DNA of 61,994 bases from a virus (lineage: Duplodnaviria > Caudoviricetes), in the IMG/VR virus record IMGVR_UViG_3300016476_000949, positions 1-61,994 of that record. One strand, written 5' to 3'. The translations under genes were made by a program, and so were the position numbers. This document shows, piece by piece, positions 1,138-51,740 of this stretch (its first letter is position 1; every line of letters starts with the position of its first letter). A model generated the notes under the pieces. The model worked only from the letters and a program-made list of their open reading frames with translations. It searched no databases and was not told the origin of the DNA.

Positions 1138-1827
1138 ATGAGCAAGTTCTATGTCTATGAACACTGGCGGCCTGATATGGATAGGTGCTTTTACGTAGGC
1201 AAAGGCGGAGGCGGGAAAGGAACCCGCATGCACAGCCTATGGAATCGCAACATCCGCTACACGCGCACAAGAAATAAATTGAAACGGGCCGGTTTGCGTG
1301 TCGATGTCCGTATTGTTGCAAGTGGATTAACAGAGCGCGAAGCTTTTGATTTAGAGAAGGAAAGGATCGCTTTTTGGCGTTCAATTGGCGTTGATCTTGT
1401 GAACCTTACAGATGGCGGAGACGGTATGACGCCAACGGAAGAGACGCGAGCTAAGATGCGCGCATCTTCGGCGCGCCGATGGTCTGATCCTGATCAGCGT
1501 AAACGTGCGGCTGAAATAGCTAAAGACAGGGCAACTCCGGACCGCATTAAAAAAATGATGGATGCGAAACCAAGGTTTGCGAGTCCTGAAACGCGCGCAA
1601 AAATGAGCGCTTCGATTCAAAAATTCTACGCAAACAATCCAGAAGCTCGACAAAAAAGAGCGGAAAGAGTTTCGGGGGAGAAAAACCATTTTTATGGTAA
1701 AAAGCATAGTCCAGAGACGCTTCAGCGTATTGCCGACAAAAAACGCGGGTCAAAAATGACCGAAGAGACAAGAGAAAAAATGAGAGTGGCTCAGTCTGAG
1801 CGCCGCCGTAGAGAGGCTGCGTCATGA
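1138..1827 (+). CDS. free-standing GIY-YIG-type homing endonuclease with NUMOD3 DNA-binding repeats
   Basis: YVYEH...FYVGKG N-terminus, LVNLTDGGDG, ETRAKM repeats and GEKNHFYGKKHSPET; lower GC than flanks. Confidence 0.85.
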   Translation: MSKFYVYEHWRPDMDRCFYVGKGGGGKGTRMHSLWNRNIRYTRTRNKLKRAGLRVDVRIVASGLTEREAFDLEKERIAFWRSIGVDLVNLTDGGDGMTPTEETRAKMRASSARRWSDPDQRKRAAEIAKDRATPDRIKKMMDAKPRFASPETRAKMSASIQKFYANNPEARQKRAERVSGEKNHFYGKKHSPETLQRIADKKRGSKMTEETREKMRVAQSERRRREAAS

Positions 1828-6265: not shown

Positions 6266-6628
6266 ATGCTGAACAGGACTAGCCTCACCAGACTTCGTGG
6301 CGTCGACGCCAATCTTGTCGCCGTCATCAAGAAGGCGAGCGAGATTTCTGAAATTCCGTTTCAGGTATCAGAGGGGCTTCGCACGCGCGAGCGTCAGGCG
6401 TATCTCGTCAAGACCGGAAAGTCCAAGACGATGAACAGCTACCACCTCAAGGGAAGGGCTGTTGATCTTGTCGCAATGCCGGGTGGTGACGTTTCTTGGA
6501 ATCTTGCCGATTACAAGAAAATCAACGCTGCCGTTCAAAAGGCGGCGAAGTCTGCCGGCGTCACGATTACGTGGGGCGGAACGTGGAAAACCATCGTCGA
6601 TGGACCTCATTGGCAAATCGAGGCATGA
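6266..6628 (+). CDS. endolysin, M15-family L-Ala-D-Glu peptidase
   Basis: EGLRTRERQ, SKTMNSYHLKGRAVDL, WGGTW...DGPHWQ motifs. Confidence 0.9.
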   Translation: MLNRTSLTRLRGVDANLVAVIKKASEISEIPFQVSEGLRTRERQAYLVKTGKSKTMNSYHLKGRAVDLVAMPGGDVSWNLADYKKINAAVQKAAKSAGVTITWGGTWKTIVDGPHWQIEA

Positions 6629-8156: not shown

Positions 8157-10478
8157 ATGCCGCACGCAACCCTGAAATTGATGCCGGGCGTCGACCAGAA
8201 TCGAACGCTCGCCTTGAATGAGGCGGCTATTTCCGAGTCTCAATTCATCCGGTTTGTCGCCGACAAGCAGGGCCTCGGCCTCGTTCAGAAGCTTGGCGGA
8301 TGGGTGCGATTCTTCCCGACCAATATCGGGTCCATCGCCAGAGCCCTGTGGGCGTGGCAGGATACGAACGGCAACAGCCTGCTGGGGGTTGGCTCGCAGC
8401 CGCTGTCGGCAACCATTACGGCGCTTTCCAATCAGGTCATCAGCCTCGAAAATTACGTCACCATCACATATTCCGGCTCCGTCCAGTTCGACATCGGAAG
8501 CACCATCGTCGTCTCGGGCGTCACTCCGAGCGGTTATAATGGCTCCTACTCCCTGACTGGCGCGACCTACAATTCCGGAACGCAAACCGGAACGGTCGTC
8601 TTCAAGGCGACCAACAGCGGCCCCATGACTGTCGCCGGCTCCATTTACGCCGGCGACGGACTGTCTGTGATAGAAAACGGCTCCCGGCAAATCCTGACGC
8701 CGCGCACGACGACGGCGAACCCGGCCGTATCGGTTACCACCACGCTGGGCAGCGCCGACGTCACCATCTCGGCGACAGGATCCAACGTCTACAGCACAGA
8801 TTCCGTTTATATCGAGACGCAAATCAGTGTTGGCGGACTTGTCCTGTTCGGCATGTATCAGGCGACCTTTGTCGACGGCACGAACAACTTCCAGATCACC
8901 GCCCGCGACGCCTTGGGGGCGCCCAAGGCGGCGACCGCCAGCACAACCGGCGGTTCCGTTCCTGTATTCGGGTTCACGATTTCCCAGTCGGTTGTTACGG
9001 TCACGCTAAACAACCATGGATATTCCGTAGGAGATGAGTTTTCGATACTCGTCCCGGTGACGGCCGCCGGGGTTACTTTGTCCGGGAATTACACGGTCAT
9101 TTCGCTGGACTCGATTTCCCCGACCAATGTTTTTTCGATACAGGCAAGCAATACGGCCACGGCGACGACCACTGCCAGCATGAATAGCGGCAATGCGCGC
9201 TATGTTTACTATAAGACGCCCGGACAGACGCCTGCCTCGACGGGCTACGGCGTCGGCGGATATGGCGAGGGCGGCTACGGAACAGGCGTGGCTCCGGTCG
9301 TTTCCGTCGTCGGAAATCCAATCTACGCCACAGACTGGTCTCTGGATAACTGGGGCCGCATTTTCGTGGCAAGCCCTGCCGGCGGGTGCATCTATACGTG
9401 GGACCCGACGTCCGGGTCATTGCAGGCCTCCGTCATTCCCAACGCGCCAACCGTCAATGACGGAATATTTGTCGCCATGCCGCAGCGACAGATCATCGCA
9501 TGGGGGTCGACCTTCAATGGCGTTCAGGACCCCCTCCTGATCAGGTGGTCCGACGTCGACGATTACAATCAGTGGATCGCCCTTCCCGCCAATCAGGCGG
9601 GAAGCTACCGGATGCCAAAGGGCTCCAAGGTCGTCGGATGCATTCAGGGCCCCCAACAGGGTCTTGTCTGGACGGACCTTGCCTGCTGGGCCATGCAATA
9701 TGTCGGCGCCCCGGATGTCTATCAGCTCACCGAGATCGGCAATGGCTGCGGGCTTATTTCCCGCAAGGCGGCGACCTCGATGAACGGCGCGATCTACTGG
9801 ATGAGCCAGTCTCAATTCTTCCGTCTGGCAGGCTCCGGCGTCGAGCCAATTACGTGCCCCATCTGGGACGTCATCTTCCAAGACATCGACATGTCGAACT
9901 CCGACAAGATCCGCGTCGCGCCAAATTCGCGATTTGGGGAGGTTTCTTGGTTTTATCCGACGACGTCCAGCAATGGCGAGATTGCGAAATACGTCAAATA
10001 CAACATCAATCTCGATAAATGGGACTTTGGGTCTCTGAACAGGACGGCTTGGATCAATCAGTCTGTTCTTGGAGCCCCCATCGGGGCCGGCATCGCCGGA
10101 ACGCAGAATTACATATACCAGCACGAAATGTCGCCTGACGCCGACGGACAGCCGATGACATCGAGCTTCACGACCGGCTATTTCGCGATATCGGATGGCG
10201 AGTGGAAGACATTCGTCGATCAGGTTTGGCCCGACATGAAGTGGGGCTATTACGGCGGACAGCAGGACGCAGACCTGACGATTACGTTTTACGTAACGGA
10301 TTATCCGCATGAGACGCCGCGCGTATATGGTCCGTATCCGTTCAACAATCAGACGGATTTTCTGACGCCGAGATTTCGCGGGAGGCTTGTCTCCATCAAG
10401 ATGGAGAGTTCAGACCTCAATTCATTCTGGCGCATCGGTGCGACTCGATATCGCTTCTCTCAGGACGGCAAATTCTAA
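8157..10478 (+). CDS. tail nozzle / packaged-DNA stabilisation protein
   Basis: 773 aa beta-rich; WSLDNWG, DPLLIRWSD, RFRGRLVSIK motifs; two small beta inserts (NHGYSVGD). Confidence 0.65.
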   Translation: MPHATLKLMPGVDQNRTLALNEAAISESQFIRFVADKQGLGLVQKLGGWVRFFPTNIGSIARALWAWQDTNGNSLLGVGSQPLSATITALSNQVISLENYVTITYSGSVQFDIGSTIVVSGVTPSGYNGSYSLTGATYNSGTQTGTVVFKATNSGPMTVAGSIYAGDGLSVIENGSRQILTPRTTTANPAVSVTTTLGSADVTISATGSNVYSTDSVYIETQISVGGLVLFGMYQATFVDGTNNFQITARDALGAPKAATASTTGGSVPVFGFTISQSVVTVTLNNHGYSVGDEFSILVPVTAAGVTLSGNYTVISLDSISPTNVFSIQASNTATATTTASMNSGNARYVYYKTPGQTPASTGYGVGGYGEGGYGTGVAPVVSVVGNPIYATDWSLDNWGRIFVASPAGGCIYTWDPTSGSLQASVIPNAPTVNDGIFVAMPQRQIIAWGSTFNGVQDPLLIRWSDVDDYNQWIALPANQAGSYRMPKGSKVVGCIQGPQQGLVWTDLACWAMQYVGAPDVYQLTEIGNGCGLISRKAATSMNGAIYWMSQSQFFRLAGSGVEPITCPIWDVIFQDIDMSNSDKIRVAPNSRFGEVSWFYPTTSSNGEIAKYVKYNINLDKWDFGSLNRTAWINQSVLGAPIGAGIAGTQNYIYQHEMSPDADGQPMTSSFTTGYFAISDGEWKTFVDQVWPDMKWGYYGGQQDADLTITFYVTDYPHETPRVYGPYPFNNQTDFLTPRFRGRLVSIKMESSDLNSFWRIGATRYRFSQDGKF

Positions 10479-10843
10479 TGGCGACCCTCGACGATCTGCT
10501 TACCGCTCAAAAGAATGGCGTCGTCGCCATCAACAATCTCAATCAGACGTATCAGCAAGTTCTGGCGAAAATGCAGTATCTCGCCGGAAGCAAGACGTCG
10601 ATCAACATCTCGGCATCGACAACGGTTGTTTCATCAGGATCCGGCCGGCTCGTTAAAATATGCGTTGTCGCCGCCGGTTCGACGACAGGGACCGTTTACG
10701 TCGGCTCCATCGCTGCGGCAAACGCCATTTACACCATCCAGAACACTGTCGGGTCATACGACGTCGGGGCGCAATTTTCTGGAGCTCTGATCATTGTCCC
10801 CGGGACCGGCCAGACGGTCAGCGCAACCTATTCACAGGACTGA
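10478..10843 (+). CDS. small structural protein
   Basis: TAATG coupling, beta-rich, 121 aa. Confidence 0.55.
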   Translation: MATLDDLLTAQKNGVVAINNLNQTYQQVLAKMQYLAGSKTSINISASTTVVSSGSGRLVKICVVAAGSTTGTVYVGSIAAANAIYTIQNTVGSYDVGAQFSGALIIVPGTGQTVSATYSQD

Positions 10844-10847
10844 CGAC

Positions 10848-11222
10848 ATGGCGGAAGACGCAGAAAAGATCCATGTCGGCCCGATACACAGCGCAGTCGC
10901 TGGACGCACGGACCATCTCCCCATGCATGTCCCCTCGGGGGCATACGTCATACCGGCCGACATCGTTTCGGCCCTCGGCGAAGGCAACACGATGGCGGGC
11001 TTCGAGGTCCTTAACGACATGTTCGGGATCCAGCGCGTCGCCGACGAGCCGGCCGCAGAAATCGTCGCTGCCGGCGGAGAATATGTGATTGCTCCGTCCT
11101 CGATCTCTCGTATGTGGGGCGACATGGACGCCGGTCATCAGGCGCTGGACGGATTTGTCGAAAAATACCGAGCTCAAACGGTCAAGGCGCTCAAGAAGCT
11201 GCCGGGCCCGCACAAGGGCTGA
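10848..11222 (+). CDS. free-standing domain resembling the GE-x-V module that follows FAxGG in tape-measure C-termini
   Basis: GRTDHLPMHVPSGAYVIPADIVSALG and a second half-repeat AAGGEYVIAP. Confidence 0.5.
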   Translation: MAEDAEKIHVGPIHSAVAGRTDHLPMHVPSGAYVIPADIVSALGEGNTMAGFEVLNDMFGIQRVADEPAAEIVAAGGEYVIAPSSISRMWGDMDAGHQALDGFVEKYRAQTVKALKKLPGPHKG

Positions 11223-11240: not shown

Positions 11241-11729
11241 ATGGACGAAATCAAGGTGAGGGTTGGCACGCCGGAGGACCTACCCGGGTGCATGGACCTT
11301 TTCATTCAGGCGAATGAAGAAAACGGCATCGACGAGATGGACGCCCAGAAGCTTCTGGGCATCGTCTGGCCCTCACTTCATCAGGACGGCGGCCTTGTCG
11401 GGATAATTGGCGAGCCCGGCGAAAGGCCCGAGGGGGTCGTTCTACTGCGCATCGAGCAGCTATGGTATAGTAATGCTCCGGTAATCGCCGAGAAGCTGGT
11501 TTTTGTGCATCAGGACTATAGAAGCGCAAAAGGCGGCAGGGCCAAGAAATTGTGCGAGTTCAGCAAGAGGGTTTCCGATGAGATGGGGATCCCCTTGATC
11601 ATTGGCGTTGTTTCGACCGACCGAACGAAGGGCAAGGTCCGTCTTTATGAACGAGTTTTCGGCAATCCCGCTGGAGCCTTCTTCCTATACGGAGCGAAGA
11701 CTGGCGCGCTGAAAGACAACGCGGCGTAA
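11241..11729 (+). CDS. GNAT-like acetyltransferase-fold protein
   Basis: EKLVFVHQDYRS...AKKLCEF...LYER pattern; position before the ejection proteins. Confidence 0.55.
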   Translation: MDEIKVRVGTPEDLPGCMDLFIQANEENGIDEMDAQKLLGIVWPSLHQDGGLVGIIGEPGERPEGVVLLRIEQLWYSNAPVIAEKLVFVHQDYRSAKGGRAKKLCEFSKRVSDEMGIPLIIGVVSTDRTKGKVRLYERVFGNPAGAFFLYGAKTGALKDNAA

Positions 11730-11745: not shown

Positions 11746-14700
11746 ATGTGCTCATTCGGGTCTAGCAACGCGTCGGCTCCGACGACCCAGTTTTCCACGC
11801 AGACGACGAGCGCCTCTCCTCAGGCGCAAGCCATGTATAATTCTGCGTGGGCCAACGCTCAGAAGGTCTCCCAGCGGCCCTTCCAGCCATACAGCTACGA
11901 CCCGAATGCATTCGTCGCGCCGATGAATCCGGTGCAGATGCAGGGCGTCAACAACATCGCCAGCTATCAGGGCGGCGCTGACCCATTTTACCAGATGGGC
12001 GCGAACATGGCCGGCTATGCCGGCAACACCGCCGCCCCGCAGGTGCTTGGCCAATACACCAACCCCTACATGTCTCAGGTCGTCGACCCGACCCGGGCGG
12101 CGATTGAGCAGCAGCAGGCGTTCCAGCGTCAGGCGCTGGACTCAAATCAGATCAAGTCAGGTTCGTTCGGTCAGGAGCGCGGCCAGCTGATGCGCGCCGT
12201 TCTGGCTGGCCAGCAGAATCTGGGCCTTGGTCAGGCGCTTTCGCCGCTCTATCAAGACGCCTACAAGACCGGTCTGGGAGCGGCTCAGACCGACCTTCAG
12301 CGTCAAGCGCAGACAGCGCAGATAATGGGCGGCCTCGGTCAGGGGTATGTGCAGAGCGGCCTTGGCGGCGCTCAGGCGCTTCTTGGGGCCGGCACCATCG
12401 GTCAGCAGACGCAGCAGGCCGGCCTTCAGGCGCTATACAACCAGTATATGCTCCAGCAGCAATATCCGTTCATGGCGGCGCAGTTTCTGTCTGGAACGGC
12501 GGCGAGCCTCGGGCCGGGATACGGAGGCACGACCAGCGGCTACCAGAGCTCGATGCAGCCGCTCTCGTTCTTCGGCAACGCGCTTTCAGACCCCCATCTC
12601 AAGGTCGGCGCCGAGGGCGAGGAGCCAGAGGTCATTGGCCAGACCCACGACGGTCAGGACATTTACCGATATCGCGTCATCAATCCAGACACCGGCGAGC
12701 CTGGGCCGGTTCAGATCGGCCTCATGGCCGATGAGGTCGAGCAGCGCCGTCCCGACGCCATTGGCGACTACAAGGGCTATCAGACTGTCGATTACGCCAA
12801 GGCGACGGACAACGCTGCCCGGCTCGGTGGCGGTGTGCGTCCGGAAGGCGGCGATTACGCCGACGGCGGATCTGTCGATGACATCGTGCGCTCTCATGGC
12901 GCGATGTATGCCGCCTTGGCCAACCCTCCGTCCGGGATTGTCCCTCAGATTCAGCTGCCGTCGGCGCGCCTTGAGCAGGGCCACCTGTCTTTCTCTTCTC
13001 AACCTCAGGAGAAGAAGGACAGCTTCATGCACACGCTCGGCGATACGGCAAACATGCTGCTCAGCCTCTACAACAAGGCCGGTGAAGCAAAGAAAACATA
13101 CGACAATTGGGGTAAAAACGCCGCCGGCGGCTCCGTTTATGGCGACGACCAGAACGACAAGCCCTTCGAGCTTGGCCAGCTGCCCGTCGCGCATCTCGAT
13201 GCGCCAAAGTTGAGCTTTGCGTCGGACAGGAGGGACGAGGGCGATAGCGGCGGCCTTGGCTCGACGCTGAAGAGCGCCGCCGGCATTGCTGGCTCCCTGA
13301 AGACCCTGTGGGACATTGGCAGCACGGTCGGGCCGGCGCTTATGGCCCTTTCCGATAGAAGCCTGAAGACCGGCGTGCGCCCGGGACGCGCCGATGGCGG
13401 CGGGGTCTTCGACGACTTCGTCAATGCGCTTTCTGGCCACGGCTACATCGACGGTTCGACTTGGGAGCGAGAGGCCGGAGAACCAATGGACATCCGGCCA
13501 TCTGTTCATTTTGAGGAGGGCGTAGCTCCTCGCGCCGCTCGCCGTGCGCCGCGTCATGAGATTGCCGCCGCCCCGCCAGCGGAAGCCAAATTCAATTACG
13601 CCTCTCGCGGTCTTGGCGCTGCGGCGCTGCCGTCGGGTCGCTTTACGCCGTTTCGATACGAGGGGCAGTATGGCCCGGTTGTCGGGTTCCGCGACGCCAA
13701 TACATTCGGCCACACGCCAATCCTGTCTGACAAGGGCTTTGCCAGTTACGACCGCGACCCCGACACGAACGACGTCATCGACCCGCATGGGTACGAATGG
13801 GCGAGGCTCCGCGAGGCCGGTGACGCCAATCGCCCGCTTGGCCCGGGTATCGCAGGTTTTGCTGACGGCGGAGCTAAATACAGCGACGAGGACCTCGACT
13901 ATCTGGCGCGGACATTGGTTCGCGAGGCCGGCGGCGAAGGCGAGCGCGGCATGGAGGCGGTCGGCCACGTGATCCGCAACCGGCTCAATTCCGGAAAATA
14001 CGGCTCCAGCGTCAAGGACGTCGTGACGTCGAAAAACCAATTTGAGCCGTGGAACGAGAGCATGCGCGGCACGAAGGCGGACCCTCGCCTCGTCGACGCC
14101 GGCAGCGACATCTACAACCGCGCCATCGGCGTCGGTCGTCGCGTCATGGATGGGGCCGACGACATCACCGGCGGCGCGATGAATTTCTACAACCCGAAGG
14201 TTGTGAACCCCAAGTGGGCGGCCGGCAAGGAAGGCCTCGACATCGGCAATCATCGCTTCCTCGACGCCAGCGGCTCGCCCGGCGCCGGCGTCGTCCCGTC
14301 GGCCTACGCCGCCAAGGAAGGCCGGCCGGCAAGCGACGCCATCGATGCAATTACGTCTGCGACCTCCGGAAAAGGCGTTAAGCCAGCGCCCGCAGCGGAC
14401 GATTCGTCGCCGGCGCGCGGCATCACCGGGTTCCTGCGTGGCGCGCCGGCGAAGGACGTGGGCGAGAAGGCTGGCGACTTCCTGACCAGCGAGCGCTTTC
14501 TTGTCCCGCTTCTGGCTGGTCTTGGCGGCATGGCGTCCTCCAACAGCCGCTTCCTCGCCCCGGCCATTCTTCAGGGCCTTGGCGCTGGCGCGCAGGCCTA
14601 CATGCAGGTTCCGAAGATCGAGGCGGAGACGGCGCTCACGCAGGCCGAGGCTAGGAACAAGAACACGCTCAACGACAAGTTTGCCGCCGAGGCGGCAGGC

Positions 14701-15714
14701 GCCCAGATGGACAATTTCTTCAAGTCCTTCATGAAGTCGCCATACGGCAACTTCGTCTTCCTGAAGGACGGCACGCCGCTGACGCAGGCCGAATACATGA
14801 AGCAGGCTCGCAGCGGCTCGCCGCCCGAGCTGCTCGGTTCCGTTCCCACCAACGGCTTGGACATCATCAAGAAAGGCGTCGAGACGGCTGGCGGAAAGCC
14901 GGCTGCGGTCGAGGAAAAACCGGCCACGCCGGCGGGCTCGGTCCCGTCCGGGGTTTACGACGAGAATTCCTCGAAAATGGCTCGCAAGGAGGCGGACCTT
15001 GCAATCAATGGCGGCATAAACGCCGAGCAGGCGGCCAAAACGACGGAGGATTACCGCAACTACGTGACCAAGGAGGTCACAGATGCTCGCGAAAATTCAC
15101 CGTATCTGAAGGAGCTGTCGACGACGCTTGCCGACGCCTATGCTCAGGACGGGTGGAATACACCCGGCTTTCAAGCGAATCTTCGCTCAGAGCTCAGCAA
15201 TCTGGTCAACACGCTCTATCGCTCGGCCGGCGGCACGGAAGACCTGTCTTCACTGAAGAGTAACACCGACAAGATCAACAAGATCTCTCAGCTTCTTGCG
15301 GAAAAGCGGGGCTCCGCCGCCGGGCAGCACGCATACGCAGCGTTGGCGGCAATCAAGTCGTCTGTTCCGAATCTTGAGATGAGCCCGGAGGCCGGCGCAG
15401 ATCTCGCGGCGCAGCTCATGGCGCTTCAGCAGCGCGCCGTCGACCGGGAAACGCACTATCGTCGCTATGTCGACGAGAGCAACGGTTTTGCCCGCGACGC
15501 AGGCGCAGATTTCAATGATCCAAAGCGCGCGAGCCGATATCAGAAAGAGCAGAAGGTTCTGAAAGACCTGATGCTGCATGAGCCGCAGGTTCTTAAAAAG
15601 ATGATGGCTGGCTCCGTTTCTCCGGAGCAGATACAGGCGGCAATCGTCAAGATCTATGGCAAAAAGGCTCCGTCTGAGATGTGGCGCTATTTTGCTCCCT
15701 CCGGAAATGGGTGA
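11746..15714 (+). CDS. DNA ejection/internal virion protein with peptidase S74-like auto-processing domain and SleB-like cell wall hydrolase
   Basis: Gln-rich N-terminus with NPY motif; SDPHLK...IYRYR...GLMADEVE...VDY (S74-like, about 12586-12810); LARTLVREAGGE...VGHVIRNR...QFEPW...DITGGAMNFYNP...IGNHRF (Hydrolase_2, about 13880-14260). Confidence 0.8.
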   Translation: MCSFGSSNASAPTTQFSTQTTSASPQAQAMYNSAWANAQKVSQRPFQPYSYDPNAFVAPMNPVQMQGVNNIASYQGGADPFYQMGANMAGYAGNTAAPQVLGQYTNPYMSQVVDPTRAAIEQQQAFQRQALDSNQIKSGSFGQERGQLMRAVLAGQQNLGLGQALSPLYQDAYKTGLGAAQTDLQRQAQTAQIMGGLGQGYVQSGLGGAQALLGAGTIGQQTQQAGLQALYNQYMLQQQYPFMAAQFLSGTAASLGPGYGGTTSGYQSSMQPLSFFGNALSDPHLKVGAEGEEPEVIGQTHDGQDIYRYRVINPDTGEPGPVQIGLMADEVEQRRPDAIGDYKGYQTVDYAKATDNAARLGGGVRPEGGDYADGGSVDDIVRSHGAMYAALANPPSGIVPQIQLPSARLEQGHLSFSSQPQEKKDSFMHTLGDTANMLLSLYNKAGEAKKTYDNWGKNAAGGSVYGDDQNDKPFELGQLPVAHLDAPKLSFASDRRDEGDSGGLGSTLKSAAGIAGSLKTLWDIGSTVGPALMALSDRSLKTGVRPGRADGGGVFDDFVNALSGHGYIDGSTWEREAGEPMDIRPSVHFEEGVAPRAARRAPRHEIAAAPPAEAKFNYASRGLGAAALPSGRFTPFRYEGQYGPVVGFRDANTFGHTPILSDKGFASYDRDPDTNDVIDPHGYEWARLREAGDANRPLGPGIAGFADGGAKYSDEDLDYLARTLVREAGGEGERGMEAVGHVIRNRLNSGKYGSSVKDVVTSKNQFEPWNESMRGTKADPRLVDAGSDIYNRAIGVGRRVMDGADDITGGAMNFYNPKVVNPKWAAGKEGLDIGNHRFLDASGSPGAGVVPSAYAAKEGRPASDAIDAITSATSGKGVKPAPAADDSSPARGITGFLRGAPAKDVGEKAGDFLTSERFLVPLLAGLGGMASSNSRFLAPAILQGLGAGAQAYMQVPKIEAETALTQAEARNKNTLNDKFAAEAAGAQMDNFFKSFMKSPYGNFVFLKDGTPLTQAEYMKQARSGSPPELLGSVPTNGLDIIKKGVETAGGKPAAVEEKPATPAGSVPSGVYDENSSKMARKEADLAINGGINAEQAAKTTEDYRNYVTKEVTDARENSPYLKELSTTLADAYAQDGWNTPGFQANLRSELSNLVNTLYRSAGGTEDLSSLKSNTDKINKISQLLAEKRGSAAGQHAYAALAAIKSSVPNLEMSPEAGADLAAQLMALQQRAVDRETHYRRYVDESNGFARDAGADFNDPKRASRYQKEQKVLKDLMLHEPQVLKKMMAGSVSPEQIQAAIVKIYGKKAPSEMWRYFAPSGNG

Positions 15715-15719
15715 TCGGC

Positions 15720-17552
15720 ATGGAAAAAGACCCCTTTGGAAATCTTTCCGACCGCTCTCACATCTTCGAAGACGAGGATGGTGACCCTTTTGCGGGCCTG
15801 TATTCACTTCCGGCTCACAACGCCCCCATGCCACCGCGCAGGCCGGCGGACATTGCCCCCAAGGCCGCAACCACAACTGATGCGGCCACAGCGGGTATGA
15901 GGTGGTCTGACGTACCAAAGGAGGCCCTCAGGAACGCGTGGCCGAGCGCCGTGAATGCCGCCGAGGGCATGGTTTCGCCGATCCTTCACCCTCAGGACAC
16001 GTGGGAGGCGGTCAAGGGGCTTGGGAAGGGGCTCGTATCCAAGGGAAAGGGCGCGCTCGGATATGAGCGCAACCCCGAAGACGAGAAGACCGTCGACGCC
16101 CTGAAGCAACTTTACGTCGACCGCTACGGCTCGGAAGAGGGCTGGAAGAATTCCATCGCAAAAGACCCTTTTGGCGTCGCCGCCGACGTGTCTTCGCTTG
16201 TCGGTGGCGGTGGTGCGGCCATTGCGCGCCTGCCGGGCAAGGCAGGGAAGTTGGGAAGCGCCATAGAAACAGTTGGGAGGGCGGCAAATCCATTCAACGC
16301 AGCGGCAACGGTGGCGGCCCCGGCCATGCTACCTGCGCAGGCGCTCTTGAACGTCCCTCTCTCGATCAAAAGCGGTGCGCCACTGGCGTCCCTCAACCGC
16401 GCCATGAAGGCGGGCTTCAGGGGAAGTGACGCATTCCTCGACCAGCTTTCCGGTGGCGATCCGGCCCAGATCGTCAACAAGGCGCATGCCGCCGTCTCGA
16501 AGATCGCCGAAAAACGCCGCGCCGATTATCTCTCCGGGATGGCAGGAGTCGCCACAGGGACGACGCCAATCGATTATACCGACATCAACAATGCGCTCAG
16601 GGACGCCTTGAAAGACGTCACTCATGGCAGCAAAACCTACAAGCGCGAAGCCGGCGATATGCTCAGGGAGCTCTCAAACGAGATCCTTGGATGGCAGCGC
16701 ATGCCGAATACGCCGACGGTCAATTATCACAATGTCGAGGGTGTCGATAAACTCAAGCAGCTGGTTGGCGAGATCAGATCAAACGCCAAGCCCGGCTCGC
16801 CGGCGGACGCCGTCGCCACCAAGATCTACAATTCCATCCGCGACACTCTCGGCAAGCATGACCCAAATTACCTGAAGGTCATGGAGAATTACGGCGACCT
16901 GAGCGACCAGCTCAAGCAGCTCAAGGTAACCCTGTCGGTCAATCCAAAGGCGTCGGTAGACACGACTCTTCGAAAGATCCTGCTTGGCGACAAGCAGAAG
17001 GACGGGTCAAAGGGAAAGCTCTTGAGCCAGCTCGCGAAAGAAGACCCTGAGATTGCAAACATGGTCGCCGGCCATCTCCTGAGCTCATGGGTGCCAACCG
17101 GTCTTACCGGAACAATCGGCGCGGCGCTGTCTGCCGCCCATGGATACGGAGCATACTCTGGCGCACTCGGTCCATATGGCGCGATTGCCGGCGCTCTTGC
17201 CTCGTCGCCGCGACTTGTCGGCGCGCTCAACTATGGAGTTGGCAATATGGCTCACCCCGGCGGCGGTCTTCCGGTGCTGGCTACGGCCCCACTCAATTTG
17301 CTGAACTCTGCAAAAGAGCCGCCCGCGCCTCGCGCTTCAGAGGAGCGTCCCTATTTCGGCGACGACGTAGAGCCGGCGCGCCCGGGGCGCGCCACGGGTG
17401 GTCGCACTGGCGGACCCAGTCCGGAGCGCCTGATTACGATGGCGAACGCTTCACGGAGGAAAATACAGGCGCGCTCCAAGGAAATCCTGAAACAGCCTGA
17501 CGAGCATGTCGTACGTGCGCTGAAAGCCGTAAACCAAGAAATGCAGGGGTAA
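15720..17552 (+). CDS. internal virion / ejection protein
   Basis: About 610 aa, helical, Gly/Ala-rich hydrophobic C-terminal region with SSPRLVG motif; follows the ejection protein. Confidence 0.6.
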   Translation: MEKDPFGNLSDRSHIFEDEDGDPFAGLYSLPAHNAPMPPRRPADIAPKAATTTDAATAGMRWSDVPKEALRNAWPSAVNAAEGMVSPILHPQDTWEAVKGLGKGLVSKGKGALGYERNPEDEKTVDALKQLYVDRYGSEEGWKNSIAKDPFGVAADVSSLVGGGGAAIARLPGKAGKLGSAIETVGRAANPFNAAATVAAPAMLPAQALLNVPLSIKSGAPLASLNRAMKAGFRGSDAFLDQLSGGDPAQIVNKAHAAVSKIAEKRRADYLSGMAGVATGTTPIDYTDINNALRDALKDVTHGSKTYKREAGDMLRELSNEILGWQRMPNTPTVNYHNVEGVDKLKQLVGEIRSNAKPGSPADAVATKIYNSIRDTLGKHDPNYLKVMENYGDLSDQLKQLKVTLSVNPKASVDTTLRKILLGDKQKDGSKGKLLSQLAKEDPEIANMVAGHLLSSWVPTGLTGTIGAALSAAHGYGAYSGALGPYGAIAGALASSPRLVGALNYGVGNMAHPGGGLPVLATAPLNLLNSAKEPPAPRASEERPYFGDDVEPARPGRATGGRTGGPSPERLITMANASRRKIQARSKEILKQPDEHVVRALKAVNQEMQG

Positions 17553-17555
17553 GAG

Positions 17556-18365
17556 ATGGTCGCCGTATCGAAGGCAAATTTGCAGCAGCCGACCTACACC
17601 AGCACAAGCTGGAACACGCCGCTCAACTCCAATTTCGGAATCATCACAAACGCCCTCGGTTCGGTAACCGGCGTCTCGGTGACCACGACAGATTATGCGA
17701 TGTCGACGGCGGAGGCGCAGTCTGCGGTCATATCCGTCAGCGGCACGCTAACCGGGGCGCGCTCACTTCTGTTGCCGGTCAACGTCTCCGGGACGTGGAT
17801 CATCCTCAACAACACATCGTCGAATACGCTGTCGGTTTATTCCAACAACGGGTCGGGCGCGGCCGCCGGCGTCGGCGTATCTCCGCCGACCGGATACGCC
17901 TACACAATCTGGAGCGACGGGACCAACGTCTACTACGGAGAAAGTAACGCGGTTCGTAAGAGCGGCGACACGATGGTCGGAGCGCTAGCGCTCCCATCAA
18001 ACGGCCTGAATGTCGGCTCCGGGCAGCTTCAGGTCTCAGGCGGAAACGTCACGACGACGGGCCAGTTCACCGCCTCCAACAACGTCACCGCCTATTCCGA
18101 CGCCCGCCTGAAGGAGGCCATCTCGCCGATCAGCTCGGCGCTGGAGAAGGTCTTGGCGATGCGCGGTGTCACCTTCAGTTATATCGACACCGGAGCGCGC
18201 GGGGCCGGCGTCATCGCGCAGGAAGTCCAGAAGGCGCTTCCTGAGGTCGTCTACGAGGACGAGGATGGATACCTGCATGTGGCATACGGCAACATGGTCT
18301 CCGTCCTGATCGAAGCGATCAAGGAGCTTTCCATCAAGGTCGAGTCGCTGGAGAACAGAAAATGA
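17556..18365 (+). CDS. tail fibre with C-terminal intramolecular chaperone (peptidase S74)
   Basis: KSGDTMVG, TAYSDARLKE...GVIAQEV...VAYGNMV...EAIKEL. Confidence 0.85.
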   Translation: MVAVSKANLQQPTYTSTSWNTPLNSNFGIITNALGSVTGVSVTTTDYAMSTAEAQSAVISVSGTLTGARSLLLPVNVSGTWIILNNTSSNTLSVYSNNGSGAAAGVGVSPPTGYAYTIWSDGTNVYYGESNAVRKSGDTMVGALALPSNGLNVGSGQLQVSGGNVTTTGQFTASNNVTAYSDARLKEAISPISSALEKVLAMRGVTFSYIDTGARGAGVIAQEVQKALPEVVYEDEDGYLHVAYGNMVSVLIEAIKELSIKVESLENRK

Positions 18366-41037: not shown

Positions 41038-44000
41038 ATGACAAAACACGTCCAGATTGATGGCAAGCTGATCGACGTCGAGCGCACACTGTTCGAGATC
41101 GAGCGCGCAGACGCCGAGGGCAGCCTTGTCGAATTTGTCAGGCAGGCTTGGCACATCATCGAGCCGGGCCAGCCATACATCCACGGATGGCACATCGACT
41201 TCATCTGTGCCCACCTCGAAGCAATCACGGATGGCGTCGAGCTGGAGGGCGGCGAGCCCTACAATCGCCTCCTGATCAACGTCCCGCCGGGGCCGGGTTG
41301 GGTTGAAAATCTGGTCACGACGGCCCGTGGCCGGGTTCGGCTCGGTGACCTGATGGTCGGCGACATGGTCCTGACACATCGCGGGCGGTATCGGCCGGTG
41401 ACGGCGTGCTACCCAAAGGGCGTTCTCCCAACGCTGCGAATTACCACCAAGGGTGGCCGGGAGACGATTGCAACCCCGGATCACAACTTCCTCACCCCGG
41501 GAGGCTGGGTTGAGGCTGGGCGCCTCCGGGTTGGCGACACGCTCGCATTCGTGACGCCCGTCGAGGATCCTTGTGTCGGGACTGTGTCTCCCGAGGAGGC
41601 GAGACTGCTGGGGTATCTCGTCGGCGACGGATCGATGACGCAGGCAACTGTCGGATTTACAAATCAAGACGAAGACGTCATCGCAGATTTTGAGAGCTGC
41701 GCAGCGTTCTTGGGATTTAAAACGACAAAGACGCTGAGAAACACGCATTGGCAGGTTCGTCTGAATGGTGGAGCCTCTGTGCGGGATTGGCTGGCGAGCT
41801 ACGGTCTTTGTGGAGCAAGTTCATACACAAAGTTCATACCGCAGGCGGTAATCTCGTCGAGCTCTGTCGTCATCAAAAATTTCATCGGGGCGTATTGGTC
41901 TTGCGATGGAATGTTTGATGTTCGGTCAACGCAGGCGAGAGGGTCTCGCTACCGGGCGAGCGCGACAACTGTATCGGAGCGTCTAGCGCGAGACTTGCAG
42001 CACGCCCTATCGCGCATCGGCATAAGGTCTTTACTCAGGAAGAAGTCGCGCGTCCTTGATACCGCTGCGCAGCCCGGAGGCGTTTATCAGTGGTTTAATG
42101 TCGAGGTATACAGCGAGGCTGACACTGCGCGGTTTATCGATATGCCCGGGCTGTCTGCCCGGAAGAATAAAATCGCTTCGGCGTGCTCTCAGCGGCGTTT
42201 CGATGCAGTTCTGAATGAGGATCCCATCGTATCGATTGAGCCGGCTGGCGACCGTGAATGCATGTGCGTGTCGGTCGAGGAGGATCATTCGTTGGTGTGG
42301 GATGACATCGTCGTCCACAATACCATGAAGTCCCTACTGTCGAACGTATTCTGGCCGGCGTGGTGGTGGGGCCCGCGCAACGAGCCCTACAAGCGTTTCC
42401 TGTGCGCGTCGCACTCCCAGTCCCTCGCCATCCGCGACTCGACCAAGATGCGACGCCTCATCGCGTCTCAATGGTATCAGGAGCGATGGGGCGACCGCGT
42501 CACATTGACGAGAGATCAGAATGCAAAGTGTTTGCTGCGCGGCACCCAGATCACGATGGCTGATGGGTCTCTGCGCTCAATCCAAGACGTTCGACCGGGC
42601 GAATATGTTCTGTCCTACGATCTTTCGACGAACAGCATTGTCGCAGACAAGGTCATGCATGTCTGGAGCAATGGGGAGAAGCCTGCGCGCCGGATTACGT
42701 TGTCGGACGGGACATCGATCACCGCCACGCTCAACCACCGGTTGTTCGGCTGGGAGAAGTTCGTCTTCACGCCTGACATGAAAGTGGGCGATCCTCTCGC
42801 CGTTATGGAGCGGTCTCCAAATCAGGCTGGTGATCTTTCGGTTGATGATGCTTTTCTCCTCGCTCTCTGGCTGGCTGAAGGGTCAAAGACTAATTCGAGC
42901 TTCATGTTCTCCAACGGCGACCCATTGATTTTGGCGCGTGTCAGAAAGATTGCACTGAAGCGCGGATGGTCAGTCAGGAATGTCGCGGGATACGATTATC
43001 TTCTGACATCCGGCGCGCAGACAGGTGATACGCCTATGGGCGTTCTGAAGAGATATCTTGGGACTGACCGGTCGTATGGAAGCAGAACGAAGCTGGCAAA
43101 AACCACCGCCGACGAGATTCGCATCCCGCCTGCCGTATTTTCTGCATCCGACGCCTCCGTTCGCGAGTTCGTCAGCACCTACATTGCCACTGACGGCTGT
43201 GTGACCAACGGCCAGAATCACGCCCTCGACATTGTGACGGTTAGCGAAAGAATGGCGCGAGATTTTGCCGCGCTGCTGAAACGCTTCGGCGTCAGTGCCA
43301 GCATTTACTCGCAAAAAATGACTTTTACCTACAAAGGCGAGCGCAAGACTGGACGAACCGCATGGCGAACGATTGTTCGCTCTGGCGGCGAGATCGCCAA
43401 GCTGGCCGATCTGCATCTTTACGGGAAGGACGAAAAATTCCGTGGGCTGCTCGCGTGGTGTCAGACCAAAAAGCGTCATGAGGGCGCAAGGAGCGCCTGC
43501 ATCCCGCCGCACGACCTTTGCCCGACGCGGTGGAGTTCAAAGCGAACGGCGGTCGAACGCGCCGAGTTGGCTGGGGATCACAGCCTTGCCGCGCGCCTGA
43601 CTGGCGGGTTGTCGTGGAGAAAAATCGTCGCCATCGAGGAGGTCGAACTCTGCGAGACTTGGCACATGGAAACGGAGCGGACGCATCTTTTCTTCGCTGA
43701 AGGCGTTTTGAGCCACAACACCAAATTCGAAACAACTGCAACCGGCTTTCGAGAAGCCGTCGCCGCCGGCTCAATTACCGGCTCTCGCGGTGACGTGGTC
43801 ATCATCGATGACCCTCACAGCGTTGAGGGCGCCGCCTCTGATGCAATGCGTCAATCTACCCTCGAATGGTTCACCGAGGCCGTTCCTACGCGGTTGAACA
43901 ACCCAAGGAGGAGCGCCATCGTCGTCATCATGCAGAGGCTGCATGAGGAGGACGTCTCTGGCGTCATCATCAATCGCAAGCTCGGTTACGACCACATCAT

Positions 44001-44892
44001 GCTGCCCATGCGGTTCGAACCCGGGCGCGCCAAGGCGACCATGCTCGGGATCTCCGACCCGCGCGAGGAGGAGGGAGAGCTGCTGTTCCCGGCCCGCTTC
44101 CCCGAGGACGTTGTCGACCGTGACGAGCGCGTCATGGGGCCGTATGCGACAGCCGGCCAGCACCAGCAAAACCCTGAGCCGCGTGGCGGCGGCATCATCA
44201 AGCGCGCATGGTGGAAGCGCTGGGATCGCCCGGCCTACCCGCCGTTCAGCTATGTGGTGGCGGCGCTCGATACTGCCTACACGGAGAAGGAAGAGAACGA
44301 CCCGAGCGCCATGACCGTCTGGGGGATCTTCTCCGGCGGCGACCAGACGGCGCAAATTACGAGATCCGTAAACCGTCACGACGAGGCCATGCAGATGGCC
44401 GAGCGCGCCTACACGGCGGAGCACCCAAAAGCCATGCTGATCTACGCATGGACGGAGCGTCTGGAGCTGCACGACCTCGTCGAGAAGGTTCGCGAGACGG
44501 TTGGGGATTACGGCGTCGATCATTTGCTGATCGAAGACCGCGCCGCCGGCCACAGCGTCGCGCAGGAGCTGCGCCGCATCTACGGATATGATGACTTTGG
44601 CGTTCAGCTGGTCAACCCGGGCAAGGCCGACAAGGTCGCGCGGCTCTACTCGGTTCAGCACTTGTTCGCCGACGGTCTGGTCTACGCGCCGGAGCGAACG
44701 TGGGCGGAGGCTGTCATCAACCAGGTCGCGCAATTCCCGAAGGGGAAACACGATGATTTGACGGACACCCTCAGCATGGCGATGAAGTATCTGCGCGAGT
44801 CGGGCCTCATTGTCCGCTCTTCCGAGCACTCCTCAGCGCTCGACTCCAGCCGCATGCTGGAGGACAAATCCGGACCCCTTTACCCTGTTTAG
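41038..44892 (+). CDS. terL: terminase large subunit interrupted by two inteins (about 544 aa after splicing)
   Basis: LLINVPPG|TMKS Walker A split by intein 1; TGSRGDVVIIDDPH Walker B; MQRLHEED; nuclease LDTA...FPKGKHDDLTD. Confidence 0.95.
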   Translation: MTKHVQIDGKLIDVERTLFEIERADAEGSLVEFVRQAWHIIEPGQPYIHGWHIDFICAHLEAITDGVELEGGEPYNRLLINVPPGPGWVENLVTTARGRVRLGDLMVGDMVLTHRGRYRPVTACYPKGVLPTLRITTKGGRETIATPDHNFLTPGGWVEAGRLRVGDTLAFVTPVEDPCVGTVSPEEARLLGYLVGDGSMTQATVGFTNQDEDVIADFESCAAFLGFKTTKTLRNTHWQVRLNGGASVRDWLASYGLCGASSYTKFIPQAVISSSSVVIKNFIGAYWSCDGMFDVRSTQARGSRYRASATTVSERLARDLQHALSRIGIRSLLRKKSRVLDTAAQPGGVYQWFNVEVYSEADTARFIDMPGLSARKNKIASACSQRRFDAVLNEDPIVSIEPAGDRECMCVSVEEDHSLVWDDIVVHNTMKSLLSNVFWPAWWWGPRNEPYKRFLCASHSQSLAIRDSTKMRRLIASQWYQERWGDRVTLTRDQNAKCLLRGTQITMADGSLRSIQDVRPGEYVLSYDLSTNSIVADKVMHVWSNGEKPARRITLSDGTSITATLNHRLFGWEKFVFTPDMKVGDPLAVMERSPNQAGDLSVDDAFLLALWLAEGSKTNSSFMFSNGDPLILARVRKIALKRGWSVRNVAGYDYLLTSGAQTGDTPMGVLKRYLGTDRSYGSRTKLAKTTADEIRIPPAVFSASDASVREFVSTYIATDGCVTNGQNHALDIVTVSERMARDFAALLKRFGVSASIYSQKMTFTYKGERKTGRTAWRTIVRSGGEIAKLADLHLYGKDEKFRGLLAWCQTKKRHEGARSACIPPHDLCPTRWSSKRTAVERAELAGDHSLAARLTGGLSWRKIVAIEEVELCETWHMETERTHLFFAEGVLSHNTKFETTATGFREAVAAGSITGSRGDVVIIDDPHSVEGAASDAMRQSTLEWFTEAVPTRLNNPRRSAIVVIMQRLHEEDVSGVIINRKLGYDHIMLPMRFEPGRAKATMLGISDPREEEGELLFPARFPEDVVDRDERVMGPYATAGQHQQNPEPRGGGIIKRAWWKRWDRPAYPPFSYVVAALDTAYTEKEENDPSAMTVWGIFSGGDQTAQITRSVNRHDEAMQMAERAYTAEHPKAMLIYAWTERLELHDLVEKVRETVGDYGVDHLLIEDRAAGHSVAQELRRIYGYDDFGVQLVNPGKADKVARLYSVQHLFADGLVYAPERTWAEAVINQVAQFPKGKHDDLTDTLSMAMKYLRESGLIVRSSEHSSALDSSRMLEDKSGPLYPV
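41293..42321 (+). mobile_element. intein 1 (343 aa, Pro1, LAGLIDADG endonuclease)
   Basis: PGWVENLVTTARG block A-like, ATPDH block B, LLGYLVGDGS and GAYWSCDG, VVHN|T C-terminal junction. Confidence 0.9.
42529..43719 (+). mobile_element. intein 2 (397 aa, Cys1, LAGLIDADG endonuclease)
   Basis: CLLRGTQITMADG, ATLNH, LLALWLAEGS and STYIATDG, LSHN|T; removal restores DQNAK|TKFE. Confidence 0.92.
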
Positions 44893-45111: not shown

Positions 45112-45317
45112 ATTTCTCGCAGGCGCTTGAACGCATCAAGTGGGGCCAGCCAATGAGCCGGGCGGCATGGTCCGACCCGTCCATCTATGTTTATCGCCCT
45201 AATCCGCCAAATGAAAACACCATGATGCTTCGTGTCCATTCGAGCGAAAGCGTCTGGTCCCCCTCGTCCGTCGACGTCATGGCGGACGACTGGTTCGACG
45301 TTCCAAGGACAAACTGA
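45108..45317 (+). CDS. DUF2829 / Tad2-like protein
   Basis: MNFSQALERIKWG...RAAW...WSPSSVDVMADDW signature. Confidence 0.7.
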   Translation: MNFSQALERIKWGQPMSRAAWSDPSIYVYRPNPPNENTMMLRVHSSESVWSPSSVDVMADDWFDVPRTN

Positions 45318-45318
45318 C

Positions 45319-50700: not shown

Positions 50701-51740
50701 CCGGCGTTAATCCGCTCACGCCGCGCGACATGACGTGGGAGGACTTCGTCCGCGAGGCCAAGGGCGGCACGCTCTTCAATGTCGCCGGAGACCGTTCTGA
50801 TCTCGGCCGCCTGACGCACATCAACGGGCGCGAGCTGGCGTGGCCGGTCGACCTGCATGCTGGACCAAAATACATGCTGGAGCCCAACCCGGGCGCGATC
50901 TGGGCGAATAATGAGGGGCACGCGACAGGGTTCTGGAATGCGATCAGGGAGGCGGCAAAGCGCGGACCTGTGTTTGGCGTCTATCACCCGATGGGCGTTC
51001 AGTCTGTCGACTCCTCGCACAACATGCTCGACACTCTCTTGTCTCAGATCGCGCTCGGCGAAGCCTACAAGAAGGACATGCGCAACGCTGACAAGATCCT
51101 TCGCGCCGGCGCGCACGCGGCTCCGGCGGACATGGAGCTGGCGCGCGAGGCAATGAAGGGCTGGCCCGGGTTCGAGAATGCGCGCGAGGCGAGCGAATTT
51201 GCGCGCGGTCTTGAGGGCACGCGCCGCTCGGAGATCGTCAAGTTCCTCGACAAGGCCCCGCGCCTTCGCGAGGGCTTCCCCGCCGTCGGCGAGACGCGTG
51301 TCGCAATTACGGACCCGGCGCTTCGCTCCGCCCCCGGCAACATGCTCGGTCATCGCATCGTGCAGTTCGATCCCGACAATCTGACGCCGGAGGCGCTCGC
51401 CTTCAGGCACTCGACCCATCCGAGCCCGACGGGCGGCCGCTATGTCGGCGACGTCCCGTTTGTCCAGTCGCAGTATGTTATGCCTGACGTAGAGCGTAAC
51501 ATCATGACCAATCTCGCCAAGGGTAACCGTGTCGTTCATCCGTTTTCCGACGACAGCCTCGGCCGCAGCTCATGGCGCAAGAGCATGGAAACCCGCAAGC
51601 TCGGTCAGGAAATCAACGACCAAATGCTCGATAGCGTCATGACCGGCATGCAGCGCCATACGGATTACGGATTCCGTAAGGGCGGCCCTGTCGTCAAGCT
51701 TGCGCGTGATGTATTATCCCGCAAGCGGGACGCCGCTTGA
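47763..51740 (+). CDS. large polyvalent (multi-module) protein, probably virion cargo
   Basis: 1325 aa next to the portal; several globular blocks (AYKLF..LYPLFV..RPGWH; YHNL..PSLA..YMEAKP; GDRS..GPKY) separated by eight xxxGG motifs. Confidence 0.7.
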   Translation: MAGKKALVDLAKSIMAGEEPGKTVSAYKLFRQKNDQLYPLFVNANTPVPMGQWLDAESGPLIGGKVKSSLGPLAYRPGWHAGDLPIATHIGGKSAPGLKAPDYRPDNQVWAEISMPDDVDWQTEALRRAQLNKRGEIIPRTAHITDQIPVGGHYRYKTNPNMTGDWLIGGSMKVNRILPDEEVRDINEGSGVSDLPRLYELMRSREGRARGGSLIQDRFPTHYLPGVGRQVMADGGAAPSMDNLMSAVNSVFTRRPAQFSAADMIGTPTSPFVSGPGAYTDAGGQEIAAPFVTGLKNGYPVPPGFMTPQPNSSTGRRSRGYQWSKGYEKGGVAKVIRAAKDVLAGYSDPPSRYIDDWKWRPLSDVRADIKATSAPPHVRNFGNGNEKTTHQDIIDAMRPRAAGGRAGFADGGWKHQFADVVGAALDAAKNVGKGERINVYHNLDADKIGKLVDRFNAIPAPSLALSKFSGSPVDFGNSTLVGRPHLAIPSEDNHVFGADAYTARMPRIFGANEFIGSDFPKHDFIFRSPDDNTKVPASIENVLAHMRSRPVLGGEGIAVGPGLLKAFMTPQPKTLRDIQRNRWNFADDVDSEDEAWGNVNSRILSHAHLMKKYAREKDPSPTGQLTRAMIDYHREGVPGFERTYTEYPRENMSVVNSIMDDIKGLKPSYMEAKPMRPVGFDEFAGAILPNEDVGYSAYKALKSAGVPEEGLYFYRTPQERKSIMKEIFAPQFGFAGGGSVERAMDIVRNAEIEPREMEPTQGEMDRIRDMMQQSHLSGGPGVVEMRDASYPLPGGRSIPLGRYPKSAVDAVETVSPLIASAAQIAANMHPATRGASRLLDLALRAKFANDVRTTGHGDASDFFSMLPGAKADMMGYAAAFANDPHEPVRDVFHRMRSGYDAGGSAKARAAKEIAKFISLDEARRRVSSPFSDDPDSVARALQYVNTLKVPQGNVMTPGSFYNIKQTRPVSDVTSTVSSIPGVNPLTPRDMTWEDFVREAKGGTLFNVAGDRSDLGRLTHINGRELAWPVDLHAGPKYMLEPNPGAIWANNEGHATGFWNAIREAAKRGPVFGVYHPMGVQSVDSSHNMLDTLLSQIALGEAYKKDMRNADKILRAGAHAAPADMELAREAMKGWPGFENAREASEFARGLEGTRRSEIVKFLDKAPRLREGFPAVGETRVAITDPALRSAPGNMLGHRIVQFDPDNLTPEALAFRHSTHPSPTGGRYVGDVPFVQSQYVMPDVERNIMTNLAKGNRVVHPFSDDSLGRSSWRKSMETRKLGQEINDQMLDSVMTGMQRHTDYGFRKGGPVVKLARDVLSRKRDAA

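Follow-up and report, generated by a model that had tools for sequence, protein, structure and literature searches.

In the IMG/VR virus record IMGVR_UViG_3300016476_000949, whose 61,994 nucleotides were analysed as a whole (the window; a nearly complete phage genome of ~62 kb with a G+C content of 0.60), an open reading frame (ORF) of 124 amino acids at 10848-11222 on the plus strand encodes a stand-alone GG-GExV domain made of two units. We refer to this protein as T124; its description is based on the translation, on 2314 relatives and on an AlphaFold2 model. In the relatives, the same domain is the constant C-terminal end of phage proteins of the polyvalent or injected type, and T124 is the minimal, shortest variant of a domain that is usually fused to others. 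We propose, with a probability of roughly 0.45, that T124 is a docking and carrier module inside the virion, i.e. the form without cargo of the C-terminal domain of injected proteins.

T124 is built from two related units

Translation from the ATG at 10848 to the TGA at 11220-11222 gives a protein of 124 residues with half-repeats at residues 19-44 and 71-86, as described in a first-pass annotation of the window that was made from the sequence alone. The half-repeats are a true internal duplication: the two halves of T124 align over 39 columns (profile 14-60 against profile 62-100) with an hhalign probability of 96% and an expectation value (E) of 4.6e-9. The AlphaFold2 model (predicted local distance difference test (pLDDT) 90.4, predicted template modelling score 0.82) has the order strand-strand-helix twice, with strands 23-29 and 33-35 and helix 37-43 in the first half and strands 69-75 and 79-81 and helix 83-90 in the second.

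Unit 1 (residues 17-47; 10896-10988, plus strand) consists of a VAGRTDHLP arm, a hairpin, a short helix and GEGN; R20, T21, D22 and N47 are invariant in it. It aligns with unit 2 and also with residues 234-268 of gp22 of Synechococcus phage MinM2. Unit 2 (residues 64-94; 11037-11129, plus strand) consists of a linker, which lacks AxGG in the window phage, the AAGGEYVI hairpin, a short helix and G-D-x-D, with G77, E78 and P83 invariant. A long helix (residues 93-116) and an LPGPxxx end (11124-11219, plus strand) form the C-terminus, where D101, R108 and P119 are invariant. Across 52 sequences the invariant positions are G11, G19, R20, T21, D22, V34, A37, N47, G51, G77, E78, P83, G96, D101, R108 and P119. 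S15, H23 and H97 are nearly invariant only, with S15 replaced by M or A, H23 by K and H97 by A in some members. The motifs of the family are all present in T124 and in order, namely H-x-G-P-I-x-S, V-A-G-R-T-D-H-L-P, S-G-x-Y-V-I-P-A-D, G-E-G-N, A-G-G-E-Y-V, G-H-x-x-L-D and the C-terminal L-P-G-P. When the two halves are aligned, the V-A-G-R-T-D arm of unit 1 coincides with the x-A-x-G-G that unit 2 has in most relatives, and the AxGG-type arm therefore belongs to the unit itself. The two units of ~30-40 residues would pair with each other, each contributing an AxGG-type arm, a hairpin with G-(E/A)-Y-V-I at the turn, a short helix and G-x-G-N/D.

The domain is the constant end of variable proteins

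Clustering of the relatives at 50% gave 2072 representatives, including 92 at E<=1e-30. Architectures were counted in 150 listed representatives, cargo domains in the 94 of these with at least 300 aa, and orthologues in 80 related IMG/VR loci. GRTD is found in all 150 representatives, which are 127 to 1500 aa long overall. LPGP lies within 10 residues of the C-terminal end in 136 of them and in 79 of the 80 orthologues. An AxGG motif occurs at most 40 residues before GRTD in 116/150 and at most 25 residues before unit 2 in 106/150, and more than 80 residues separate units 1 and 2 in 83/150.

Concerning the cargo, Pfam domains in the long representatives are ART-PolyVal (8), InPase (3), NUDIX (3), LPD23 (2) and GNAT (2), with M15_4, CHAP and DUF6782 found once each; most of the 94 proteins have no hit. 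Cargo lies before the domain or between its halves, at [R/K/F/Y]AxGG junctions. A clear case of cargo inside a split domain is the 341-aa orthologue on a contig of Acidisoma cellulosilyticum (L118:5884-6909), in which a Nudix box sits between the units, flanked by R-A-A-G-G. Many relatives, among them P0010, P0121, P0135 and P0167, begin with a motif of ~40 residues (phrog_2423; M-P-L-x-K-G-x-S ... P-Q-K-Q-A-V-A-A-A-L) that leads into RAxGG. Another small motif, phrog_16028, is repeatedly present within long relatives.

Of the 80 orthologues, 69 carry the N-terminal motif and 68 have AxGG directly in front of the domain. The window protein has neither the N-terminal helical hairpin nor the RAxGG linker, and the motif is not encoded at another place in the window (best tblastn E 0.43). 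Its near relatives include a protein of the same length (P0002, 124 aa, 85% identical) and a longer one (P0010, 169 aa, 84% identical), in which R-A-E-G-G is followed by the same sequence as the start of T124. Bare forms of 124-130 aa recur, and the N-terminal motif is absent from 11/80 orthologues, so that the domain is maintained also where there is no cargo.

The first-pass annotation had inferred a split module, the free GExV body of which could act in trans on FAxGG strands dispersed in cargo proteins. The presence of AxGG in cis in 68/80 orthologues and the window copy being the shortest variant do not support this, although T124 may still bind or cleave in trans.

A fixed slot before the ejection genes

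The gene order g258, g773, g121, T124, GNAT acetyltransferase, E1322 is kept in the window and in 80 of the 80 loci, often with E623 and a tail fibre gene thereafter. The T124 orthologues in these loci are 127-605 aa long (median 182). E1322 (11746-15714, plus strand) is a 1322-aa ejection protein with a phrog_4287 'DNA ejection protein' N-terminus and a Hydrolase_2 domain (PF07486), so that the earlier placement of T124 just before the ejection genes is borne out, the GNAT gene coming first and E1322 after it. BLASTP finds E1322 homologues as 68 ORFs in the 80 loci; where g121, GNAT or E1322 falls short of 80, this is largely at contig ends.

T124 relatives were also found in 37 bacterial genome contigs, including those of Rhizobium lusitanum (two strains), Ancylobacter and Acidisoma. 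Their position on large bacterial contigs suggests prophages. In 13 bacterial loci inspected, an ORF of ~160-190 aa is followed downstream by an ORF of 536-1767 aa, as judged by size.

AxGG junctions in the neighbouring proteins

In the window, AxGG occurs four times in E1322 (A at residues 372, 459, 549 and 706), once near the end of the 623-aa internal protein E623 (15681-17552, plus strand; start codon uncertain), as RATGG ~50 residues from the C-terminus, and six times in a 1325-aa portal-adjacent protein (47763-51740, plus strand), which ends in RKGG and a helix-like tail. None is present in the portal, the terminase, the head protein, g258 or g773. Across orthologues, observed and expected numbers are 200 and 28.0 for T124, 292 and 153.4 for E1322, 20 and 12.2 for E623, 68 and 61.2 for g773, 2 and 5.6 for g258, and 5 and 15.5 for g121. 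The excess in E1322 is modest (1.9-fold) yet positional: G374 is the same in all of 30 orthologues and G375 in at least 90% of them, in a region otherwise poorly conserved, and indel-rich linkers come after the junctions. In E623 orthologues R precedes the A in 14 of the 20 motifs. The tail fibre has a 4.2-fold excess within glycine-rich sequence. For the GNAT gene a meaning of AxGG was rejected, as a single conserved S-A-K-G-G-R site, which we take to be the coenzyme A-binding loop of the GNAT fold, inflates the ratio of observed to expected to 5.8.

In several orthologues the first E1322 junction runs on as G-G-A-I-V-A-P-A-D-M-x-A-I-L, which by eye is like the hairpin and helix of T124. The E1322 junctions are therefore read as partial copies of the unit and not, as had been suggested, as ligands of it. 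The AlphaFold2 model of the long form P0010 (pLDDT 85.1) comprises an N-terminal helical hairpin and the domain; residues 42-48, within or just after R-A-E-G-G (41-45), have pLDDT <50 and lie between these two well-folded parts. In this model the RAxGG of long forms looks like an exposed, disordered linker, and there is therefore no sign of AxGG docking in cis, contrary to a split module whose strand binds its body. Complex prediction of T124 with residues 352-400 of E1322, which hold its best-conserved junction, gave an ipSAE of 0.01 twice (mark 0.32), in runs without controls, and speaks neither for nor against binding.

Comparison with tape measure and polyvalent proteins

Our comparison with tape measure proteins covers lambda and T5. 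Residues 733-771 of lambda gpH read F-A-T-G-G ... G-E-F-V-F ... I-G-V-G-N, then Y-A-T-G-G, and hhalign puts T124 on gpH 751-771 in every run, weakly (E 0.0016-0.039, including 0.0033 and 0.0074; probability 1-16%). The likeness to tape measure C-termini claimed in the first pass thus holds for the motifs, which are in register, and is statistically weak. gpH matches TIGR01541 (472-813) and PF09718 (627-701), T124 neither of them. A search with gpH 700-853 returned, in all 120 listed matches, near-identical E. coli prophage proteins (99-100% identity).

According to passages of a 2025 paper (PMC12617516), gpH is cut in a glycine-rich region into gpH* and gpHC, gpHC stays in the particle, where residues 818-849 bind gpI, and residues ~690-817 are unresolved in structures; according to the same passages, neither what catalyses the cut nor where exactly it falls is known. 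The proteolytic maturation of gpH, which the first-pass annotation had cited, is in line with this text. As gpH ~690-817 is unresolved, the folds of T124 and gpHC are not comparable. gpHC (~690-853) is like T124 in having AxGG, a G-E-[FY]-V hairpin, a short helix and G-x-G-N, followed by a C-terminal docking segment, and also in size (~120-130 aa against 124 aa). It differs in that the single lambda unit is joined to an 850-aa tape measure of a phage with a long tail, whereas T124 has two units and stands alone in a short-tailed phage.

Passages of PMC10038345 describe that T5 pb2 is cut after R1127 and that pb2C is retained as a trimer in the tail tip and expelled at infection; only its last 35 residues are resolved, and a metallopeptidase motif with muralytic activity is ascribed to it. 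The T5 sequence after R1127 is A-E-G-G, and pb2C spans residues 1128-1219 (92 aa). Like T124 it is small, and it begins at AEGG where T124 begins after the RAEGG of the long forms. The only His of pb2C stands after AEGG in H-G-T-E, which would be the published motif. T124 lacks this His; it has A75-G-G-E78 and no H-x-x-E, and its unit 1 has no Glu. T5 is the one experimental precedent that connects AxGG with proteolysis. By analogy with its cut at R|AEGG, the [R/K/F/Y]AxGG linkers of the T124 family are probably processing sites.

A clear single-unit homologue is gp22 of Synechococcus phage MinM2 (L121:5302-6186), which is homologous to both halves of T124 (E 2.4e-12 and 2.5e-7). Its order is that of T124, with YAEGG, G-M-S-D-D-I-P (compare G-R-T-D-H-L-P), G-E-Y-V-I-P-A-D-V-V, G-N-G-S and a C-terminal helix. 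The SD.IP element, which the first-pass annotation had named for tape measure C-termini, is thus present in this homologue. MinM2 gp22 differs from T124 in having one hairpin unit instead of two and another C-terminal tail without LPGP; the 'calcium-binding protein' label of its record is unverified. The C-terminal region of gp22 has at least 2514 long relatives. In 108 of the 120 listed (P0394-P0513) the unit lies 53-56 residues from the end, and all 120 are unannotated, none being named tape measure. Many MinM2-type proteins share an N-terminal G-D-S-M-L-V-H-M-T-P-x-E.

The long relatives of T124 resemble polyvalent proteins in their ART-PolyVal, InPase and LPD23 domains and in their place among virion genes. 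Passages of Iyer et al. 2017 (PMC5512222) place polyvalent injected effectors among virion genes and name zincin-like MPTase domains as responsible for their processing; the text of that paper never mentions 'glycine'. T124 itself is a single domain without an effector domain, in contrast to the polyvalent class with two or more effector or enzyme domains. Nor is T124 a tape measure protein, since its 124 residues form no long helical ruler and its gene setting is not that of a long tail. In passages of a 2023 structural paper, no conserved motif is seen among tape measure C-terminal fragments, and our two full-text motif searches found no paper that describes the motif. Within the limits of these searches, the motif link among tape measures is probably not yet in print.

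A large family without annotated members

The T124 domain family is large and undescribed. At E<=0.01, 2314 of 2323 candidates (68-217 aa) are relatives of T124; the best 120 of the 2314, which were listed, are 100% to 64% identical to it. T124 has no match in Pfam (E<=10) or NCBIfam (E<=1), and its sole PHROG match, to phrog_11341 (function unknown), is weak (E 0.11). In particular, Pfam gives no match to M23, M15 or carboxypeptidase models, to any LPD model or to PF13884 (Peptidase_S74), and there is no similarity to a known chaperone family.

Structure databases are equally silent. PDB sequences searched with the family profile gave 0 hits at E<=10. Foldseek of the T124 model against PDB, which had been named as a check on the tape measure idea, found no similar solved fold at E<=1e-3; rows for KH domains (E 0.26-2) were taken as noise, with template modelling (TM) scores of 0.2-0.3. 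BFVD returned uncharacterised phage proteins only and the ESM Atlas unnamed phage clusters only. The nearest named ESM Atlas cluster, crAss_CARG1, was dropped, its 0.85 with 112 shared features being at chance level. A tblastn search of INPHARED gave five records, two of them uncultured phages and three covering only 28% of the query.

Proposed role of T124

A constant C-terminal end, an invariant tail, swappable cargo, a fixed gene slot and a bare form together argue that the domain is a structural module that has its own function. The absence of any enzyme family or fold match for T124 in Pfam, NCBIfam, PHROG, PDB and the fold searches counts in the same direction. We propose that T124 is structural and not an enzyme, and that it would reside inside the virion together with the ejection proteins. 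Its C-terminal helix and LPGP tail may dock in the channel of the portal or nozzle, as gpHC and pb2C do in the tail tip, and at infection T124 would exit the virion along with the ejection proteins. Across the relatives, in a large lineage of short-tailed phages, the domain would bring enzymes into the virion and the host; these enzymes were presumably inserted at flexible [R/K/F/Y]AxGG linkers, either ahead of the domain or between the two units. The parallel to gpHC and pb2C fits this proposal by analogy, as both fragments are small, start at AxGG, include or border a unit and dock by a C-terminal helix.

Several points weigh against a docking and carrier module. No proteomic or structural datum places T124 in any virion, and among the five INPHARED records there is no cultured relative. 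The link to lambda gpH is weak, as its hhalign probability says. The T124 profiles do not detect T5 pb2 1128-1160, which leaves the AxGG motif as the link to T5, and the C-terminal helix of T124 matches neither T5 TMP_C nor other Pfam models. The polar residues R20, T21, D22, N47, E78, D101 and R108 are invariant; so many exceed the needs of docking and would suit a catalytic or ligand-binding site. Finally, the best Z in the VIA wide fold search was 3.3, unusually low even for an orphan. The fold of T124 may need partners or oligomerisation, in which case the monomer model may mislead.

Alternative functions

Protease activity of T124, in cis or in trans, is possible, and none of the family and fold searches gave positive evidence for it. 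As a processing peptidase, the GG-GExV unit would cut [R/K/F/Y]|AxGG upstream of itself in cis, and free T124 would act in trans on the 1322-, 623- and 1325-aa proteins. We consider this unlikely, even though it survives best among the alternatives. The T5 cut after R1127, directly before AEGG, is what such an enzyme would produce; the cut in lambda gpH also falls within this glycine-rich region, and for neither phage has a catalyst been named. The conserved E1322 junctions, with G374 invariant and 292 motifs against 153 expected, would serve as substrates, the cis linker is exposed in the model, T21, D22, N47, E78 and D101 could form an active site, and no other protease was recognised among the 30 window proteins scanned. 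Against this, no peptidase family or fold is matched in Pfam, NCBIfam, PHROG, Foldseek PDB or VIA (best Z 3.3), and S15, H23 and H97 vary, which leaves no invariant Ser or His as nucleophile or base, although a peptidase with a new fold would escape such searches. The only polar hairpin residue common to unit 2, lambda and MinM2 is the Glu, in place of which unit 1 has A or S. Moreover, the T5 element is not detectably homologous to T124, and lambda and T5 have no free-standing homologue, so that trans action is not needed there. A T5 paper of 1973, going by its title, reportedly concerns host involvement in tail-protein cleavage, which we also count against this role.

More doubtful still is an assembly-triggered, self-processing junction, in which the GG-GExV unit would cut before its own AxGG, as mapped for R|AEGG in T5, and T124 would be the first form of this new kind of peptidase to act in trans, on the AxGG junctions of the three large internal proteins. 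If true, it would explain the maturation of lambda gpH and T5 pb2 as well as the division of giant tape measures and polyvalent proteins into separate enzymes.

Of similarly low probability is an assembly factor or chaperone outside the mature virion, which would start the loading or oligomerisation of the ejection proteins before being discarded. It would be the free-standing counterpart of a C-terminal intramolecular assembly domain, much as tail-fibre assembly proteins are counterparts of S74-type chaperone domains. In favour are the conservation of a C-terminal domain on hypervariable bodies, the removal of the C-terminal fragment in lambda and T5 once assembly is over, and the fixed gene slot immediately 5' of the ejection genes. 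P22 gene 14, which we take to be a small gene in a comparable position, is a lead for this explanation and not a test of it. On the other side, the lambda and T5 fragments remain in the particle, fusion to ART or NUDIX domains makes most sense for bringing enzymes into the virion, and T124 is unlike any known chaperone family.

That T124 is a small muralytic enzyme, released into the periplasm to digest peptidoglycan, is very improbable: passages of the T5 paper (PMC10038345) say so for pb2C, whose only His lies in the H-G-T-E stretch right after AEGG, and T124 adjoins a protein with a cell-wall hydrolase domain, but T124 lacks H-x-x-E (the residue three positions ahead of E78 is A75) and has no M23, M15 or carboxypeptidase match, and the phage already has Hydrolase_2 in E1322 and an endolysin at 6266-6628.

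Other genes of the window

T124 is preceded by an AGGA ribosome-binding site at 10836-10839 (plus strand), read directly from the sequence 8 nt 5' of the ATG. The stop codon of g121 (10841-10843) ends 4 nt 5' of the same ATG, and given this spacing the two genes are tightly coupled. g121 (10478-10843, plus strand) encodes a beta-sandwich-like protein of 121 aa and is conserved across the related loci, where its homologues number 75 ORFs of ~118 to 204 aa; ESM Atlas structure rows give TM ~0.5 to folds like carbohydrate-binding modules or carbohydrate-binding beta-sandwiches. Downstream lies the GNAT acetyltransferase gene (11241-11729, plus strand; phrog_1249, E 5.7e-5), which is fixed directly 3' of T124, with 74 ORFs across the 80 loci. 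The enzyme may be a packaged or injected protein.

The genes are of podophage type, with an SU10-type portal (45232-47760), a nozzle-like 773-aa virion protein (g773, 8157-10478) and internal ejection proteins. No tail tube, sheath or tape measure protein family was matched among the 30 window proteins scanned. No prohead protease family was found among these 30 either, the remaining ORFs lying outside the scan, and the first-pass statement that the genome has no conventional prohead protease holds that far. To our knowledge, its absence is normal in short-tailed phages of this type, such as T7 and P22. An S74-type tail fibre (17556-18365, plus strand; PF13884 match) follows E623, and the major head protein is encoded at 55319-56224.

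The large terminase subunit (1284 aa; 41038-44892, plus strand) matches terminase PHROGs at residues 907-1262 only and helicase/primase-type PHROGs at residues 89-582, which suggests a fusion or an intein or other insert. The 1325-aa protein has a conserved phrog_30118 region at its N-terminus; its PBECR5 nuclease match is weak (E 2.9e-4) and under the curated cut-off. Between its gene and that of the head protein lies a GroES-like co-chaperonin gene (52621-53019, plus strand; phrog_3188, E 2e-11). A homing-endonuclease-like ORF (1138-1827, plus strand; phrog_314, E 3.7e-14) and an endolysin-like ORF of 120 aa (6266-6628, plus strand; phrog_465, E 3e-49) were also recognised.

Significance

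Thousands of phage proteins, hypervariable in the rest of their sequence, have as their constant end either the T124 domain or the related single-unit domain. The domain flags proteins that are probably packed and injected, including ADP-ribosyltransferases, NUDIX hydrolases and acetyltransferases. Moreover, the unit sits beside the cut in tape measure proteins, at a mapped site in T5 and in a known region in lambda. With its 124 residues and confident predicted fold, the stand-alone form is the simplest object for studying the fold and the binding or cleavage of AxGG, and it offers a handle on the old question of how tape measure proteins are cut.

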